IMG/VR virus record: IMGVR_UViG_2609459819_000001
Span: 1-42,054 of that record
DNA: 42,054 nt
Direction: 5' to 3' (one strand)
Origin: a virus
Taxonomy: Duplodnaviria; Heunggongvirae; Uroviricota; Caudoviricetes
Every line of letters begins with the position of its first letter. Within the stretch, counting starts at the first letter, position 1. The notes under the pieces are model-generated. The model was not told where the DNA came from. It ran no database searches and saw only the letters and a program-made list of their open reading frames with translations. Shown here piece after piece: positions 2,890 through 39,017 of this stretch. The position numbers and the translations under genes were made by a program.

Positions 2890-3243
2890 TTATGCCTCGC
2901 TTGTTACAGTCGTCTGGCCGTAGATTGTGTCAATGGAGGAAGTGAAGGTGACGCGACGGCTGGTGCCGTCATAATTGGTATCGAAGGAAAGAATCGACAG
3001 AACGCCCGGTGTGTCCTGTATGCGTTCACGTATAGCCAGGATGTAGACGTCAGATCGCTGTTTACCAAGCACCGACTGAACATACGGCGTGCCTTCCGTC
3101 AGATCGAGAAACCACTGACCGCGCCACAGCTCGAAGCGGGTTTTTACTGCCTGGGCGACACATTCCGGACTGTCGATAAGGAAAGTATCGTCACCCTGCC
3201 CGAAAGTGTAATCACCGTCGGCGTCTTCACGTCTGTATCGCAT
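2890..3243 (-). CDS. Small baseplate protein (gpW / Mu gp46 position)
   Basis: 117-aa ORF immediately upstream of J-like gene. Confidence 0.4.
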   Translation of the reverse strand: MRYRREDADGDYTFGQGDDTFLIDSPECVAQAVKTRFELWRGQWFLDLTEGTPYVQSVLGKQRSDVYILAIRERIQDTPGVLSILSFDTNYDGTSRRVTFTSSIDTIYGQTTVTSEA

Positions 3244-32264: not shown

Positions 32265-32804
32265 TCATATAACCCCCAGCATAATCTGCACCATTTCCAT
32301 CAACGGACCGGTTAACCCAGGGTCAACGCGATACATCTCCACGATCCCCTCGCTCAACTCTTTCAGCTTCTGATGACGTGGCGCATCCATTGCGACAGCA
32401 ATCTTCGCTTCGCTGGTTTCCTTCCCCAGCCTTGCCAGACGAGCCATTACGTTGTCTTCTGGTAGCAGACGATTGCGGTATTCAATCGGCAGGACAGCGA
32501 GGATTGCCGGCGTCAGCTGGCGAACGTTTTCGCGGTACCGTTCGCTGTTGAAATGGTTATCCAGAAAGCGGAAAAGCTTCTGACGCTGTCGGCTGAGGTC
32601 ATCAGGGAAAGTGATCTCGTCTCCCCCTTGAGCCTGGTACTCTTCGATGATCAGAGCAGAAACGACATCCTGACCATCTACACCCGCCCACGCACGAACG
32701 GCATCGCGGATCTGGTCATGTTTATCTACCGAGACAGGTTGATTGCGATTTATCATCGCAGCCGTTTGATATCCGCTATTTTGATGAAGTGATAGTGACT
32801 GCAT
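32265..32804 (-). CDS. cII-position regulatory protein (YdaT-like?)
   Basis: 179-aa ORF directly downstream of cro-like gene; YdaT-like assignment by position (Rac ydaS-ydaT arrangement), low certainty. Confidence 0.35.
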   Translation of the reverse strand: MQSLSLHQNSGYQTAAMINRNQPVSVDKHDQIRDAVRAWAGVDGQDVVSALIIEEYQAQGGDEITFPDDLSRQRQKLFRFLDNHFNSERYRENVRQLTPAILAVLPIEYRNRLLPEDNVMARLARLGKETSEAKIAVAMDAPRHQKLKELSEGIVEMYRVDPGLTGPLMEMVQIMLGVI

Positions 32805-32806
32805 GG

Positions 32807-33040
32807 TTATGCCCTCGCTTCCTGAGCCGGTAATCCATCCGTAGGGTTGAGGTACAAATCAGGGCGTAACTCATGTGGAGTTACACCTGTAGCATTGAAA
32901 ATAGGAATGACACGGTTAGCCGGTACGAATCCATTGTCACGGTGACGCCAGTGACTGACCGTCATTGGGGATACATTGAGCTTTTCTGCTAAACGGGTTG
33001 CACCCCCTACGATGCATATTGCTTTATCAAGTGCTTTCAT
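32807..33040 (-). CDS. cro: Cro-like HTH regulator (YdaS/Cro family)
   Basis: 77 aa from internal ATG 33040 (MKALDKAICIVGGATRLAEKLNVSPMTVSHW...); GGAG 6 nt upstream; divergent from the repressor gene. Confidence 0.55.
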   Translation of the reverse strand: MKALDKAICIVGGATRLAEKLNVSPMTVSHWRHRDNGFVPANRVIPIFNATGVTPHELRPDLYLNPTDGLPAQEARA

Positions 33041-33067
33041 ATTTGGCTCCAAGTAATAACGAACCAA

Positions 33068-33096
33068 ATTAAACATTATGTTTATGTTCAAGTCAA
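33068..33096 (-). promoter_or_regulatory. pR-like promoter (TTGACT-17 nt-TTTAAT)
   Basis: -35 at 33096..33091, -10 at 33073..33068 on minus strand; operator palindrome in the spacer. Confidence 0.5.
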
Positions 33097-33111
33097 CATT
33101 ATGAATGTTGA
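33070..33111. promoter_or_regulatory. OR-like operators: palindromes TAAACATTATGTTTA (33070-33084) and TCAACATTATGAATGTTGA (33093-33111)
   Basis: Two perfect palindromes sharing AACATTATG in the 103-bp cro/repressor intergenic region, overlapping the pR -10/-35. Confidence 0.5.
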
Positions 33112-33135
33112 GGCGATAAACTTTTAGTTTAGAAT
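33108..33135 (+). promoter_or_regulatory. pRM-like promoter for the repressor (TTGAGG-16 nt-TAGAAT), near-leaderless transcript
   Basis: -10 ends 8 nt before the repressor ATG (33144); no SD present. Confidence 0.35.
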
Positions 33136-33143
33136 CTTGATAT

Positions 33144-33539
33144 ATGAGAAAAAACACACACCAAACAGATAACCCGCAGGTTCGGCGGTTAAATGAAATC
33201 ATCGAGAAGAAGCGCATATCCAAAGCGGATATAGCGAGAATCTGTGGTGTGAGCGCACAATCAGTCAACAACTGGTTTGTCAGAGGAGCGATAGGAAAAA
33301 GCTCAGCAATAAAACTTGCCGATGCGCTAGGCGTAAGTCTTGAGTGGGTTCTAGGTCAGGACGTGGATGCTAAGAACGGTTTGAGACACGACGAACGGAG
33401 ACTGTTGGAACTCTATAATCAACTCCCAAACGAAGAAGAACAACAGAACATGTTGCGGATCGTATCTCTACGGTTGAAAGAACTCGATGAACTGTACGCC
33501 AAGTACATGGGACGGCGGATTAAGGGCGATGCCGAGTAA
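33144..33539 (+). CDS. Phage repressor, HTH XRE family (cI-like but without peptidase S24 domain)
   Basis: 131-aa ORF divergent from cro; HTH-like region ISKADIARICGVSAQSVNNW; no Ala-Gly / Ser-Lys autocleavage region visible. Confidence 0.6.
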   Translation: MRKNTHQTDNPQVRRLNEIIEKKRISKADIARICGVSAQSVNNWFVRGAIGKSSAIKLADALGVSLEWVLGQDVDAKNGLRHDERRLLELYNQLPNEEEQQNMLRIVSLRLKELDELYAKYMGRRIKGDAE

Positions 33540-33584
33540 CGAGCCGCTGGTGCCCAGGAAGCATGGGTAGACAGGGATAAAATC

Positions 33585-33683
33585 ATGAGAATTGGTATAG
33601 TGTTTCCGATCTTGGTGTTCATCGTAGCTATGGGGTTTATGGCATGGTTTATCATCGATGGATACGCAACACCCAGCGGCTAA
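33585..33683 (+). CDS. 32-aa hydrophobic peptide (MRIGIVFPILVFIVAMGFMAWFIIDGYATPSG)
   Basis: Manually translated; AGGGA 7 nt upstream; single TM helix; immediately downstream of repressor. Confidence 0.25.
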   Translation: MRIGIVFPILVFIVAMGFMAWFIIDGYATPSG

Positions 33684-33795
33684 TTCGCAGTTCCACCGGT
33701 TGATAGCTTATAACAAATTATAGTAGTTGAAGGTGAAACAGATCGGGTATCTTCTGATATAACAATGAAACATTTTGTCTATAGATAGCATAGCT

Positions 33796-33816
33796 TGCAA
33801 CTAGATTTCAGTTGCA
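33796..33816. promoter_or_regulatory. Inverted repeat TGCAACT-N7-AGTTGCA upstream of hicA (candidate HicB operator)
   Basis: Perfect 7-bp arms, about 28 nt upstream of hicA start. Confidence 0.3.
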
Positions 33817-33843
33817 CTACCTTTAACAGAGGATGTATCCTTC

Positions 33844-34098
33844 GTGGGAAGAAAGGAAAAGCTAAAGTCAAAGTTAGACGGCTTACCCAAAAATTTTACT
33901 TGGGATGAGTTCGTTACTCTCATGAACCAGTATGGCTTCAAGCTTTTGAATGCTAAACGAGGTTCTGGTCGTAAATTTTACAACCAACGTGTTGATAGAT
34001 TGGTCATTTTTCATGAGCCTCATCCTGAAAACACCCTCAAAAGGTACGTCTTGGAAGAAGTTAAACAGCTGTTAGATGAGATTGATGATCATGAATAA
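33844..34098 (+). CDS. hicA: HicA-family toxin (YcfA-like mRNA interferase)
   Basis: 84-aa ORF with GF..L...KRGSGRKF...FHEPHP pattern resembling HicA; directly upstream of a HicB-like gene; GTG start. Confidence 0.5.
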   Translation: MGRKEKLKSKLDGLPKNFTWDEFVTLMNQYGFKLLNAKRGSGRKFYNQRVDRLVIFHEPHPENTLKRYVLEEVKQLLDEIDDHE

Positions 34099-34102
34099 CT
34101 TG

Positions 34103-34549
34103 ATGAAATACAAAGGTTACTATGGTAGCTCCAGCATTTCATTTGAAGATGGGGTGATGCATGGAAAACTCGAATGTATAAATGATCTCGTCACTTATGA
34201 GGGTGCAACGGTTGCAGAACTCCGTGCAGCCTTTGAGGAGGCCGTGGACGATTACCTCTCCACTTGTGAAGAGATAGGAAAATCTCCAGATAAGACAATG
34301 AGTGGTTCGTTTAACATCCGGATAGGTGAATCCCTGCATAAAAAAGCATATTTAGCTGCTAAAGCTAAGAATATGACTTTAAACGATTATGTAAAACAGG
34401 CTGTCAGTGAGTCAGTTAATGGGAAAAAAGAGGTTCACTACCACTTTGAAAAACCGAGGGATGTTAGAGAAGTTACTTTCTTCTCATCCCGTAGACGTAC
34501 AGAAGAGACCTATTGGGAAGTTTCAGTAGACAACGGAGTGCCACATTGA
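34103..34549 (+). CDS. hicB: HicB-family antitoxin (HicB fold + C-terminal RHH-like region)
   Basis: MKYKGYYGSSSISFEDGVMHGKLECINDLVTYEGATVAELRAAFEEAVDDYLSTCEEIGKSP...FNIRIGESLHKKA matches the HicB pattern. Confidence 0.65.
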   Translation: MKYKGYYGSSSISFEDGVMHGKLECINDLVTYEGATVAELRAAFEEAVDDYLSTCEEIGKSPDKTMSGSFNIRIGESLHKKAYLAAKAKNMTLNDYVKQAVSESVNGKKEVHYHFEKPRDVREVTFFSSRRRTEETYWEVSVDNGVPH

Positions 34550-34974
34550 TGCTTGATAAAATTCGCTTTAAGGGATTTGATCTCGAGGGTTCTTCCCTTT
34601 TTATCGACGACAGTGATAATTCTGAAGGCGGAAAATATAGCTTAAAATTTTCTGAGCATCACGTTGTTCCTCAAAAAGATGAAGATGGAAATTGGCTCTT
34701 TATTGAAGTTAAGCCATCGATAACTGGTTTCCCTCGCGATAAAAAAGATTTTGATGATGGTGAGGATGTATTGTTCAAGGCAGAGGCTACCTTGACACTA
34801 ACATTTGAGTGTGACCTCGATGAAGAAGTAACTGAGGATTTTTATAATGAAAATGCTTGGTTTTTTGAAAATTATGTATATGTATGTACAAAAACAGTTT
34901 TTGAAAATATGTTCAAAAACACAGTGTTAGATACTATAACGTTACCTTGGTCCCCAACATCATCTAGAAAATAA
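34549..34974 (+). CDS. Acidic hypothetical protein (141 aa) co-oriented with hicAB
   Basis: ATG overlaps hicB stop (TGATG); about 30 Asp/Glu vs about 14 Lys/Arg; AT-rich DNA; followed by terminator. Confidence 0.4.
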   Translation: MLDKIRFKGFDLEGSSLFIDDSDNSEGGKYSLKFSEHHVVPQKDEDGNWLFIEVKPSITGFPRDKKDFDDGEDVLFKAEATLTLTFECDLDEEVTEDFYNENAWFFENYVYVCTKTVFENMFKNTVLDTITLPWSPTSSRK

Positions 34975-34981
34975 TCTCCAA

Positions 34982-35009
34982 CCCGGCCACCGCGCCGGGG
35001 TTTCTTTTG
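34982..35009 (+). terminator. Intrinsic terminator ending the repressor/hicAB transcription unit
   Basis: CCCGGC-caccgc-GCCGGG stem followed by TTTCTTTTG. Confidence 0.5.
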
Positions 35010-35010
35010 C

Positions 35011-35205
35011 CTACCCTTTTCGCACTTCCTCAGCAGCAAACCTGAACACCTGTCGCCAAAAATCGTTCTGCTCAATATCCCCCAGCGACTCCAGCATTGA
35101 AATGATCGCCTCAGTAGTGGGCGCGTCTCCATGTGATATCAGATTCAGCGTCGCTCTACCTACCGCCTGACATACATCGTTGTAACCCACGTAGAACTTT
35201 TCCAT
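35011..35205 (-). CDS. Hypothetical 64-aa protein
   Basis: ORF with GAGGGTGGG upstream of ATG; convergent with hicAB unit. Confidence 0.3.
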   Translation of the reverse strand: MEKFYVGYNDVCQAVGRATLNLISHGDAPTTEAIISMLESLGDIEQNDFWRQVFRFAAEEVRKG

Positions 35206-35317
35206 ATCCCACCCTCATCGATTTTTTTATAACCACAAAATAGACCACAAAACATACTACTCGTGCCAACGAGCGCAACCAACTAAACTTTTTGTTTATA
35301 TAAAAATGCTCATTATG

Positions 35318-35346
35318 TTGACACGCAAATAAACATTGTGTTTAAT
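35318..35346 (+). promoter_or_regulatory. pL-like early promoter (TTGACA-17 nt-TTTAAT) with embedded operator TAAACATTGTGTTTA
   Basis: Near-identical architecture to pR; operator 35330-35344 in spacer/-10; second partial site CATTATGTTGA overlaps the -35. Confidence 0.5.
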
Positions 35347-35589
35347 TGCTCCATCAACACAACCACCAAAGCAGGACGCCCACGAAGAAGCCGTCCGGGG
35401 CATTCGAAGACCGGAATGAGGTGGTGAGATTAACGCGCAGTAGGTTTGAAACGTTCCGCCAGCCTGGCGACAAGGGCAAAGCACAGAGTGAGCTTCGCGG
35501 TGGTGAATTGCAGAGTTAAAGCGCTCAACCGTGAAGATCAGCGCCGCAGCAACACCAGCGAAGTTCACTCAGAAAAACTGGAGTACATC

Positions 35590-35796
35590 ATGGTTCATCA
35601 GCACTACGGTACACAGACAGTAAACCGCGGCGCAGTTCAGCCGGGGATGCTTGTAAAACACAAAGACTCAACCTGGACCGCATCTGCTAACGCACGCGGT
35701 CGCCTGTATCTTCACCGTGGCATCGAACGTACCTACACCAAAGATTTGCTGGTTGAGGTTTATCTAAACGGTTTAGGACATGGCCTTAGCCATTAA
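35590..35796 (+). CDS. Hypothetical 68-aa protein (first gene of pL-like operon)
   Basis: ATG with GGAG 6 nt upstream; preceded by about 240-nt leader. Confidence 0.3.
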   Translation: MVHQHYGTQTVNRGAVQPGMLVKHKDSTWTASANARGRLYLHRGIERTYTKDLLVEVYLNGLGHGLSH

Positions 35797-35969: not shown

Positions 35970-36107
35970 CGAAAACCCCGCGCAAGGCGGGATTCACGTC
36001 CGGTGCCACCGACCAAAGTTACACCGGAATTTATACCAAACCAAAAAACATCCAATGGGCGCTATCTCTGGCCCGGGGATTCTAACACTCAAAAAAGAGG
36101 ATCTCAC

Positions 36108-39017
36108 ATGGAATTTTTCCATCTGATAAAAGCCAGTCAGAAGTCTGGCAAGAAAGATGCAGTGATTTGGTTCACTGCGAAAAGTGTAGCGCGCGCCAAT
36201 CTCCAACTCGATGTGGCACTGGAAGAAGCCGGAATTGAAGAAACTGGCCGCGGTAAAGATTATGCCAAACCAATCCGCACCGATTTCCCGGTATATGACG
36301 ACCTGCCGGAAGAAGGCGCAGTGGATTACACCTGGTGCAAACGCTACGAACTGCAGAACGATGACCGCACCTGGCTGCCAAAAGTCACAGCTGAAAACTC
36401 TGACGAGAAAACGGCTCAGACCGTTGATAGTCACATAACTACTGAGTCAACGCTGCCAGAAACCGCTGGCATCACGCTGGACGAACACGACGACGACTCA
36501 ACCCTCTACCCGGTAGTGCAGATGCCGTTTCGTAAGCAACTGCTTTCCCAGTTCACCGCCGACGAACTGCGCCACCACGTAACCCGCGAAGAGTACGAAG
36601 CTATCGGCGCGCTGGAGATGGACACTGATAACAGTTACGTCCAGAACTTGCTGTTAGCTGCTGAGAACTGCCCGGACGTGAAGGGTTACGACACCAAAGA
36701 CCTGTGGCGCTACACCGATGCCATTCGCAAAGTGTTCAGCCAGGACAAGCGTCACGAACTCGCGCTGGTACTCCGTTTCACCAGAATGTGGGCGGCGACT
36801 GATTACATTGACCGTGGCATCCTGGCGCGTGAATGGGCTGCCGGTAATCACATCAGTAGTGTTCAGCGTACTGATTCCGGAACCAATGCCAACGGCGGTT
36901 ACGTCACTGACCGTGGACCTGATGCATACCATACCCTTGACACTCTCGATTTAGAGATTGCATGTGCCCTTCTGCCTATGGACTTCAACCACTTCGAGAT
37001 CCCGGGCAGCATTCTTCGTCGCGCTAAAGAAATCGTGACCAAAAAAGAAGAACCGTGGAAATCATGGAGCAGCATTCTGCGCAATCAACCCGGCGTTCTT
37101 GGCGTTAACCGCACAGCTATTTTTAACCTGATACGTATCGCGCCGGAAAATATTCATCTAACTCCTGTCGCTCACCTGGAGTTTGTTAACCGGACCATGA
37201 CTGCTGCGTTTAATGCTGCTGTTGAGTTATTGCCATTGCATGAAGCTGAGCCCGCAACACAGGAAATTCCCCAACCTGAAGGTAAGGAGTCTCCGCGCAA
37301 ATCCTTCTGCACTCACGAAGAGAACCTGCAACGCGTGCGTGAAGAAGGAGCACGCCGCCGCGCAGAGGAAGCGGCAGCACAACCGCAGAAAGTCGAACAA
37401 GAACTGGTTAAAAATGTCGGCAACGGAATATTCGACGTTACGGCTTTGCTGCAGAACTCAGCAACTCATGGCACGAAAAAGGCTACGGAGACCACCAGCA
37501 ATGTGCAGGTTCAAGAAACTGTCAGTGATGAAAAACAAGCTGGTGATGAAGTACAGCCAGGCGAAAGCAGTCTGGAGTCTGGTGAAGAGTCAGATACCAG
37601 CCAGAAGGACGATGTAGACCAGAATACGGATTCTGTCGCCAAAAATAGCGATTCTGTAAGCCAAACCGAACCAGTTGCAGCACAAACCGAGCCAGAAGCG
37701 CAATCTGACGAACCAGCTGTTGTTTATCCCGCTTATTTCGAGCCAGGCCGCTATGAAGGGCTGCCAAACGAGGTTTACCACGCCGCCAACGGCATCAGCT
37801 CAACCCAGGTGAAAGATGCGCGCGTTTCGCTGATGTACTTCAATGCGCGCCACGTAGAGAAAACCATCGTCAAAGAGCGCTCAGCGGTGCTGGACATGGG
37901 CAACTTGGTGCATGCGCTGGCGTTGCAGCCTGAACTACTGGACGCAGAATTCAGCGTTGAACCGGTGATCCCTGAAGGCGCATTCACAACGGCCGCGACC
38001 CTGCGCGCCTTTATCGATGAGCACAATGCCAGCCTGCCGGCGCTGCTGTCTGCCGACGACATCAAGGTGTTACTGGAAGAGTACAACGCCACCCTGCCGC
38101 CGCAGGTTCCGCTTGGCGCTAACCTGGAAGAAACGGCACAGAACTATATGGCGCTGCCAGCTGACTTCCAGCGTATTGATGGTGACCAGAAGCAGACGGC
38201 GACGGCAATGAAGGAATGCATTAAAGAGTACAACGCCACCCTGCCGCCGCCGGTTAAAACCAGCGGCAGCCGTGACGCGCTGCTGGAGCAGTTGGCAATC
38301 ATCAACCCTGACCTTGTGGCTCAGGAAGCACAGAAACCGGCACCACTGAAAGTGTCCGGTACCAAAGCAGACATGATCCAGGCCGTGAAGGCAGTCAAAC
38401 CAGATGCCGTATTTGCCGACGAACTGCTGGATGCCTGGCGCGATAACCCGGAAGGAAAAGTGCTGGTCACCCGCCAGCAGCTGAGCACCGCGCTGAATAT
38501 TCAAAAAGCGCTTCTGGCACACCCGACCGCCGGCATGCTGCTGACCCACCCTAGCCGAGCCGTTGAGGTGAGCTACTTTGGTTTTGACGAGGAGACGGGC
38601 TTGGAAGTTCGTGTGCGCCCTGACCTTGAGATCGACCTGGATGGCGTGCGTATAGGTGCAGACCTGAAAACCATCAGCATGTGGAATGTTAAGCAGGAAA
38701 GCCTGCGCGCCAGGCTACACCGGGAAATTATTGAACGTGATTATCACCTGAGCGCGGCTATGTACTGCGAAACCGCAGCGCTGGATCAGTTCTTCTGGAT
38801 TTTCGTCAACAAAGACGAGAACTACCACTGGATCGCCATCATCGAGGCATCCGCTGAACTACTGGAGCTGGGTATGCTCGAGTACCGCAAAGCGATGCGC
38901 AATATCGCAACCGGATTCGACACAGGTGAATGGCCAGCGCCAATCACTGCTGACTACACCGACGAACTGAACGACTTCGACCTGCGCCGCCTTGAAGCGC
39001 TGCGTACTCAGGCATAA
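36108..39017 (+). CDS. recE: RecE-like exonuclease VIII (C-terminal PD-(D/E)xK nuclease domain)
   Basis: 969 aa from ATG 36108 (AAGAGG upstream); acidic N-terminal region; C-terminal RPDLEIDLDGVRIGADLKT with Asp and D-x-K motifs; followed by recT-like gene. Confidence 0.55.
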   Translation: MEFFHLIKASQKSGKKDAVIWFTAKSVARANLQLDVALEEAGIEETGRGKDYAKPIRTDFPVYDDLPEEGAVDYTWCKRYELQNDDRTWLPKVTAENSDEKTAQTVDSHITTESTLPETAGITLDEHDDDSTLYPVVQMPFRKQLLSQFTADELRHHVTREEYEAIGALEMDTDNSYVQNLLLAAENCPDVKGYDTKDLWRYTDAIRKVFSQDKRHELALVLRFTRMWAATDYIDRGILAREWAAGNHISSVQRTDSGTNANGGYVTDRGPDAYHTLDTLDLEIACALLPMDFNHFEIPGSILRRAKEIVTKKEEPWKSWSSILRNQPGVLGVNRTAIFNLIRIAPENIHLTPVAHLEFVNRTMTAAFNAAVELLPLHEAEPATQEIPQPEGKESPRKSFCTHEENLQRVREEGARRRAEEAAAQPQKVEQELVKNVGNGIFDVTALLQNSATHGTKKATETTSNVQVQETVSDEKQAGDEVQPGESSLESGEESDTSQKDDVDQNTDSVAKNSDSVSQTEPVAAQTEPEAQSDEPAVVYPAYFEPGRYEGLPNEVYHAANGISSTQVKDARVSLMYFNARHVEKTIVKERSAVLDMGNLVHALALQPELLDAEFSVEPVIPEGAFTTAATLRAFIDEHNASLPALLSADDIKVLLEEYNATLPPQVPLGANLEETAQNYMALPADFQRIDGDQKQTATAMKECIKEYNATLPPPVKTSGSRDALLEQLAIINPDLVAQEAQKPAPLKVSGTKADMIQAVKAVKPDAVFADELLDAWRDNPEGKVLVTRQQLSTALNIQKALLAHPTAGMLLTHPSRAVEVSYFGFDEETGLEVRVRPDLEIDLDGVRIGADLKTISMWNVKQESLRARLHREIIERDYHLSAAMYCETAALDQFFWIFVNKDENYHWIAIIEASAELLELGMLEYRKAMRNIATGFDTGEWPAPITADYTDELNDFDLRRLEALRTQA

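Follow-up and report, generated by a model that had tools for sequence, protein, structure and literature searches.

A probable HicAB-type toxin-antitoxin-chaperone module in the repressor-Timm slot of a Rac-like lambdoid prophage

The 42,054-nucleotide virus record IMGVR_UViG_2609459819_000001, analysed over its whole length and referred to here as the window, is a Rac-like lambdoid prophage. Directly downstream of its immunity repressor gene lies a cassette (33585-35009) consisting of a gene for a small membrane protein, hicA and hicB genes typical of a toxin-antitoxin (TA) pair, a third gene, here termed hicC, for an acidic protein, and an intrinsic terminator (Table 1). We consider hicA, hicB and hicC to represent, in all probability, a toxin-antitoxin-chaperone (TAC) module of the HicAB type. 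A first-pass annotation of the sequence had listed these elements, and all of them are present where it placed them with a single refinement, the start of hicB. The cassette is indeed AT-rich, as that annotation described, with a GC content of 39% against 52% for the window.

Table 1. Features of the cassette and its immediate surroundings. Positions are those of the window; aa, amino acids; pI, isoelectric point; ORF, open reading frame.
Feature	Position	Strand	Remarks
Prophage immunity repressor gene, 131 aa, RacR/DicA-like	33144-33539	+	Helix-turn-helix domain only; Pfam HTH_3 and Phage_CI_repr, NCBIfam DicA-like; left boundary of the cargo slot
YoaK-family small membrane protein gene, 32 aa	33585-33683	+	NCBIfam NF033821 equivalog, 54.9 bits (cutoff 32); same assignment in RefSeq
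Prophage-repressor operator-like site AAACATTTTGTCTA	33768-33781		One mismatch from the oR/oL palindrome AAACATTNTGTTTA; binding predicted
Candidate HicB operator, TGCAACT-N7-AGTTGCA	33796-33816		Some 27 nt upstream of the start of hicA; its left arm shares bases with a -35-like TTGCAA
hicA, toxin gene, 84 aa, GTG start	33844-34098	+	Clade lacking the GSH histidine; Pfam PF07927 (HicA_toxin), 32.1 bits (gathering score 27), residues 20-73
hicB, antitoxin gene, 152 aa	34091-34549	+	N-terminal HicB domain, putative DNA-binding domain, C-terminal tail; Pfam PF05534, 66.9 bits (gathering score 21)
HicB tail codons, residues 112-152, KKEVHYHFEKPRDVREVTFFSSRRRTEETYWEVSVDNGVPH	34424-34546	+	Putative chaperone-addiction (ChAD) element; missing from two-component relatives
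hicC, predicted SecB-like chaperone gene, 141 aa, pI 4.36	34549-34974	+	ATGA overlap with the hicB stop; GGAG 10 nt upstream
Intrinsic terminator, Timm equivalent	34982-35009	+	CCCGGC-N6-GCCGGG (34982-34999) followed by a T-run; closes cassette and repressor operon
64-aa ORF between Timm and pL	35011-35205	-	Convergent with the cassette; no Pfam family

The product of hicA is a HicA protein by hidden Markov model (HMM) and by fold. In addition to the Pfam family it matches phrog_8887, annotated as toxin, with an E-value of 2.7e-34. The AlphaFold2 model, with a predicted local distance difference test score (pLDDT) of 86.6, displays the helix-strand-strand-strand-helix arrangement of a double-stranded RNA-binding-domain-like fold. 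The elements are a helix at residues 20-29, strands at 32-35, 42-47 and 52-57 and a helix at 67-83, with an extra helix at 3-12 on the N-terminal side. The best three matches of this model in a Foldseek search of the PDB are HicA toxins (PDB codes 6g26 and 5yrz) and the TM scores, normalised to the target, are 0.72-0.74.

The usual GSH motif is replaced by GSGRKF, as the first-pass annotation recognised, and Gly42 aligns with the catalytic His36 of Streptococcus pneumoniae HicA (5yrz). The replacement is shared by a clade. In the 120 closest members the histidine position is occupied by arginine (71), glycine (34), lysine (6) or another residue (2), with no clean GS-x match in the remaining seven. 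Three residues, Lys44, His57 and His60, are invariant and Arg43 is conserved to at least 90% in 59 sequences that extend down to 37% identity with the window HicA, and the clade motif can be written as GS[R/G/K]RKF ... H-x-P-H-P. HicA proteins of the clade may use a non-canonical active site formed by Arg43, Lys44, His57 and His60. Members linked to TAC modules and members of two-component systems, for example HicAB of the IncX4 plasmids, are both found. The clade is large, with 1057 matches that take in the HicA of IncX4 resistance plasmids, and some records misname its members 'hexulose-6-phosphate synthase'.

That hicB encodes a clear HicB antitoxin is borne out by a strong match to the Pfam family. 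The protein also matches phrog_9151 (E-value 5e-55), a profile that reaches only to about residue 119, and residues 73-119 show a weak match to the Arc-like repressor phrog_582. We prefer a start at 34091 over 34076, since the resulting N-terminus and 8-nt overlap with hicA are conserved in homologues; the overlap is shared by the Yersinia and Klebsiella loci. HicB then comprises a conserved core, residue 1 to about residue 111, and a tail of 41 residues rich in aromatic side chains, containing His116, Tyr117, His118, Phe119, Phe130, Phe131, Tyr141, Trp142 and His152. An H-x-H motif and a C-terminal histidine are widely conserved in such tails. The two-component HicB proteins of IncX4 plasmids (115 residues) and of a Hydrotalea genome (125 residues) stop just after the putative DNA-binding domain, and neither locus has a third gene.

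The third protein had been described as strongly acidic, translationally coupled to hicB and of no recognisable family. The first two properties are evident from the isoelectric point and from the overlapping stop and start codons. The last holds at the level of sequence, with no match in Pfam, NCBIfam or PADLOC, and fails at the level of fold. The AlphaFold model (pLDDT 78.6 and predicted TM score 0.72, from a shallow alignment of 10 sequences) consists of an antiparallel sheet followed by a long helix. When the PDB was searched with this model using Foldseek all 18 matches with an E-value of 1e-3 or better were SecB structures, the best E-value being 3e-5. Leading these, ahead of housekeeping SecB, is Mycobacterium tuberculosis Rv1957 (5mtw) with TM scores of 0.67-0.73. 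On the evidence of the model, the protein is predicted unambiguously to have the SecB fold, with its nearest relative a TA-associated SecB-like chaperone. The HMM and structure searches that the first-pass annotation had advised for all three proteins recognise HicA on both counts and HicB by HMM, and identify the third protein as SecB by structure but not by HMM. Roles as a DNA mimic, regulator or effector, also suggested there, are disfavoured by the fold and by the strict co-occurrence with the HicB C-terminal extension described below. Housekeeping SecB is itself acidic, so acidity provides no argument for DNA mimicry.

The hicC family is small. A word-indexed search identified 12 proteins and an exhaustive profile search of 1.84 billion representatives gave 60 clusters with an E-value of 1e-3 or better, whilst a search of genome loci with a 10-member alignment returned four loci. 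In database records of 2007 and 2012 the gene product is hypothetical, and in a 2025 GenBank entry (PV340539.1) it carries the label 'HicC chaperone', given independently by the depositor. Literature searches on HicC, HicABC, the phages that carry the cassette and the combination of SecB with HicB in a lambdoid context found no paper on the cassette; matches for phages mEp234 and HK106 were unrelated to it.

Comparison of genomes ties the HicB tail to the third gene. The three-gene unit is found in 10 distinct loci, from Escherichia, Pantoea, Yersinia, Rahnella, Klebsiella, Vibrio, Pseudoalteromonas, Oceanospirillum, Desulfobotulus and Pontiellaceae, and the third genes of all 10 match the family HMM. 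The junction of hicB with the third gene is a one-base overlap in six of these loci, the window included, and ranges from a 17-nt overlap to a 3-nt gap in the other four. Together with the two-gene loci of IncX4 and Hydrotalea they provide a sample of 12. Where HicB is 151-158 residues in length the third gene is present (10 of 10 loci); where it is 115 or 125 residues the third gene is absent (both loci). The mean pairwise identities over the 10 TAC loci are 51% for HicA and 59% for the HicB core, with 21% for the HicB tail and 28% for the chaperone. Fast-diverging, specific pairs of ChAD and chaperone are a reported pattern in TAC systems (PMC5105189). The unit is also found beside a type I restriction-modification specificity subunit and beside integrases.

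The inverted repeat upstream of hicA had been put forward as a candidate operator, an assignment that phylogenetic footprinting strongly supports. Six diverged cassettes (from Escherichia, Pantoea, Yersinia, Klebsiella, Vibrio and Oceanospirillum) carry the palindrome without change amid flanking sequences that are not conserved, and the window has a single copy. The operator-like site for the prophage repressor is positioned 15 nt upstream of this palindrome, just after an extended -10-like sequence, TGATATAAC (33755-33763). It is not conserved in the other genera and, by its sequence, may couple the cassette promoter to the resident immunity repressor. A scan with the sigma-70 consensus gave no promoter for hicA. 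By manual inspection TTGCAA-N17-TACCTT and the extended -10 TGATATAAC can be offered as speculative candidates. No RNA family was found when 32800-35700 was scanned against Rfam.

The cassette occupies a well-defined slot. On the left, the repressor gene is divergent from a YdaS/Cro-like gene (32807-33037, minus strand) and a YdaT-like gene. The palindrome AAACATTNTGTTTA, allowing at most one mismatch, occurs at 33071, 35285 and 35331, with no further copies in the window outside the cassette; operator-like matches to it number five in the window, compared to 0.08 expected. On these grounds the three palindromes are assigned as the right and left operators, oR and oL. These positions flank the region, placing the cassette in the interval from the repressor gene to pL, where rexAB is found in phage lambda. 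The orientation, that of the repressor gene, is also the same as for rexAB. The first-pass annotation had named this the rex-equivalent position and we agree: the HicA/HicB module lies between repressor gene and Timm with the operators on either side. In lambda rexAB is co-transcribed with the repressor gene and provides an exclusion function expressed in the lysogen. There is no homology between rexAB and the window cassette, and RexAB is a sensor and membrane ion-channel system, not a TA pair with a chaperone.

Only one intrinsic terminator is present on the plus strand between 32900 and 35500, namely that closing the cassette, and there is none between the repressor gene and the cassette, which makes the suggested expression in the lysogen plausible. 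This closing terminator, correctly located by the first-pass annotation, is annotated as Timm in GenBank EF120460. In mEp234, and likewise in prophages with other cargo, it is retained and marks the slot's right edge. In sister E. coli prophages KMi029 and B18271, which have the same repressor and backbone, the slot holds unrelated cargo, which joins the backbone at the repressor stop codon on one side and at the terminator on the other.

The slot has also been traversed by recombination. Phages mEp234, HK106 and mEp506 match the segment 33505-35012 with 99.7% identity, and in them the cassette follows a lambda-type cI and ends at the annotated Timm. In mEp234 the last 35 nt or so of a window-type repressor gene (33505-33539 in the window, approximately 3001-3035 in mEp234) remain between the phage's own cI and the cassette. 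Such a remnant is a recombination scar, indicating that the lambda-immunity phages acquired the cassette from a phage of the window's immunity type.

The reading that we favour, and hold to be probable, is that the cassette represents a HicAB-type TAC module carried as a moron in the repressor-Timm slot of a Rac-like lambdoid prophage. By analogy with M. tuberculosis HigBA1-SecBTA, Methylomonas HicAB-SecBTA, E. coli HigBAC and CmdTAC, the following mechanism can be envisaged. The HicB tail would serve as a ChAD, leaving HicB prone to aggregation or sensitive to proteases unless bound by a SecB-like tetramer. With its tail held by the chaperone HicB would neutralise HicA and repress the operon via the palindrome. 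Transcription of the operon in the lysogen would come both from the repressor promoter, by read-through, and from a promoter of the operon itself. A protein of a superinfecting phage might then compete for the client groove of the chaperone, with the loss of HicB and release of HicA, and the freed HicA would shut down translation and abort the infection. A defence or addiction module, as the first-pass annotation proposed, fits the precedent of HigBAC in the same slot (bioRxiv 10.1101/2024.02.24.581848).

A number of observations weigh against the proposal and are best considered together. The window HicA, whilst HicA by fold and HMM, is a catalytic variant that lacks the canonical histidine, and in the literature we found no member of the clade whose toxicity has been demonstrated, which is the chief weakness of the TA assignment. 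A 2024 review notes that no plasmid-borne HicAB system had been characterised, and for the IncX4 HicAB plasmid maintenance has been excluded as a function. With respect to the chaperone, neither phmmer nor two family profiles gave a meaningful match when compared with the sequences of the PDB, none of 54 family members scanned with Pfam matched SecB, and hhalign of the family against E. coli SecB was not significant (E-value 0.16), although this alignment, weak as it is, keeps the last strand and the long helix in register. The depth of the alignment used for the structural model is a further caution. Finally, PADLOC recognises none of the cassette components, and the defence role is suggested by position and by analogy.

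Of the alternatives the one that survives best, though we judge it unlikely, is a working TAC module whose role is not anti-phage defence but addiction to, or stabilisation of, the prophage, such that cells losing or silencing it are killed or arrested, or else stress-responsive control of growth. Post-segregational killing is the classical role of TA systems on mobile elements, the M. tuberculosis TAC system has been described as stress-responsive (PMC3581621), expression could be linked to immunity status through the operator-like site of the hicA promoter region, and the lack of any PADLOC match would be consistent with such a role. Set against this, the slot is a variable locus equivalent to that of rexAB in which the one characterised TAC is a defence system, the genomic neighbours noted above (a restriction-modification specificity subunit and integrases) are typical of defence islands, and the related two-component HicAB of IncX4 did not stabilise its plasmid.

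The second alternative concerns the toxin. In characterised HicA proteins the GSH histidine is required, namely His23 in E. coli, His24 in Burkholderia, His28 in Yersinia and His36 in Streptococcus (PMC11594946), yet Gly42 occupies the position of His36 in the window protein and arginine, glycine or lysine is found there in 111 of the 120 closest clade members. In view of this, and of the absence of a characterised plasmid-borne HicAB, the IncX4 relative included, the clade HicA might not be a ribonuclease toxin and the module might be a non-toxic unit for regulation or RNA binding. We regard this as improbable. The alternative residues Lys44, His57, His60 and Arg43 are under strong purifying selection, the HicA fold and the partnership with HicB are retained, and it would make little sense to keep an antitoxin, a chaperone and an autoregulatory operator if there were no toxic activity.

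Least probable is that hicAB is an ordinary two-component TA and that the third protein is an independent SecB-fold moron with no action on HicB (it might act as a holdase on some protein of phage or host, serve in anti-defence, or be an acidic decoy or DNA mimic): the protein is strongly acidic and lacks sequence similarity to any SecB, but the hicB stop overlaps its start in six of the 10 loci, the window among them, with close abutment in the other four, gene and long HicB tail never occur apart in the 12 loci, and the closest structural neighbour is a TA-dedicated SecB in complex with a ChAD peptide.

A TAC module is not without precedent in either its composition or its location. Three TA families are known to occur with SecB-like chaperones, HicAB among them (PMC5105189). 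In the HicAB-SecBTA system of Methylomonas methanica MC09 (Metme_2813/2812 and a chaperone), dependence on the chaperone has been validated in E. coli (Bordes et al. 2016, PMC5105189). The window module resembles it in combining HicA and HicB with a SecB-fold chaperone. The Methylomonas HicB is of similar construction, approximately 159 residues with a ChAD of about 41 residues (119-159) following the DNA-binding domain, compared with residues 112-152 of 152 in the window protein. The differences are that the Methylomonas HicB is visibly unlike that of the window, as judged by eye from the supplementary alignment, that the chaperones in that paper are described as SecB-like whereas the window chaperone is missed by the Pfam SecB model, and that a prophage context is not reported there.

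With respect to location, HigBAC of E. coli NT1F31 occupies the same slot, downstream of cI and equivalent to rexAB, in a lambdoid prophage (Mets et al. 2024, bioRxiv 10.1101/2024.02.24.581848). HigBAC protects from lambda-vir as well as Bas25, because the lambda tail protein gpV competes for binding to the chaperone HigC with the ChAD, the recognition of which depends on aromatic residues (bioRxiv 10.1101/2024.02.24.581848). It differs from the window module in being built on a HigB/HigA pair rather than HicA/HicB. The HigBAC ChAD is also longer, approximately 97 residues (122-218) carrying four aromatic motifs some 30 residues apart, as opposed to a 41-residue tail. HigBAC and related TAC systems were found via sequence relatives of SecB (bioRxiv 10.1101/2024.02.24.581848). 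The window family displays no SecB sequence signal and would, in consequence, probably be missed by searches for SecB homologues.

The M. tuberculosis system HigBA1-SecBTA (Rv1955-Rv1957; 5mtw) provides the closest structural match, but the chaperones share only 12-14% sequence identity and the toxin belongs to another family. That system is chromosomal and described as stress-responsive; the window module is prophage-borne. The IncX4 HicAB (pJIE143 type) shares a HicA without the histidine (GSR...HRPHP) and a HicB core that is 42% identical to that of the window, differing in that it is a two-component system with a HicB of 115 residues, no tail and no third gene.

A more specific proposal can be advanced only tentatively, as a possibility and not an expectation. 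The cassette might represent a distinct TAC lineage, in which a HicA without the histidine operates through the Arg43/Lys44/His57/His60 site, a SecB-fold sensor lacking SecB sequence similarity is employed, and the whole is wired to the immunity repressor via the operator-like site, giving a rex-like exclusion set off by a superinfecting phage, one of whose structural proteins would displace the HicB tail from the chaperone.

The existence of this kind of system, a TAC acting in phage defence at this slot, was already known and a chaperone label for the third gene is public. What is new is modest: a chaperone family invisible to SecB sequence searches, a HicA clade without the catalytic histidine and an operator-like site in the hicA promoter region. 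Current views of TA and TAC systems are extended, not changed. Nevertheless a protein that has been hypothetical in mEp234 and HK106 since 2007 becomes a testable chaperone and possible phage sensor, and a HicAB-type TAC is added to the cargos of the lambdoid rex slot. SecB-like TA chaperones reach beyond the sequence models, so the number of TAC systems is probably underestimated. The histidine regarded as indispensable to HicA activity is missing from a large clade of these proteins, HicA of the IncX4 resistance plasmids among them. Work on the system should be straightforward, given that the E. coli phages mEp234, HK106 and mEp506 have been isolated and have lambda immunity.

The remaining features are of lesser relevance to this argument. 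The 32-residue membrane peptide noted by the first-pass annotation belongs to the YoaK family. The ORF is also found, unannotated, with the cassette in mEp234 and HK106. In Klebsiella and Vibrio the gene calls upstream of hicA contain nothing equivalent, nor do the ORF lists of the other loci. By these comparisons the YoaK ORF goes with the E. coli cassette and lies outside the conserved TAC core. A 9-bp inverted repeat around this ORF was considered and set aside, being at about chance expectation.

Alternative cargo in the slot comprises proteins of 101 and 211 residues (locus L014, 1981-2927) or of 107, 127 and 141 residues (locus L015, 2052-3179). These proteins of the sister Rac-like prophages have no significant match in Pfam or PADLOC, and their genes are candidates for uncharacterised exclusion or defence functions. 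The 141-residue product of the third gene in the B18271 cargo was considered as a relative of the chaperone and rejected, as it is unrelated to that family.

The small ORF on the minus strand immediately beyond Timm was likewise rejected as a fourth component of the module because it stays in place when the slot cargo differs (L014 and L015); it belongs to the conserved backbone. Homologous small ORFs, with 22-34% identity, follow the TAC genes in Pantoea (L003, 4015-4236) and Yersinia (L004, 4068-4274).

The repressor itself carries no S24 peptidase domain, so induction by RecA-stimulated self-cleavage in the manner of lambda cI is unlikely. Downstream of the cassette, in the early-left operon, an ORF of 1004 residues (36003-39017) corresponds to a RecE-family exodeoxyribonuclease in RefSeq, where the start is placed approximately 100 nt downstream of the ORF start. 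Its translation displays a long, acidic, low-complexity central region.

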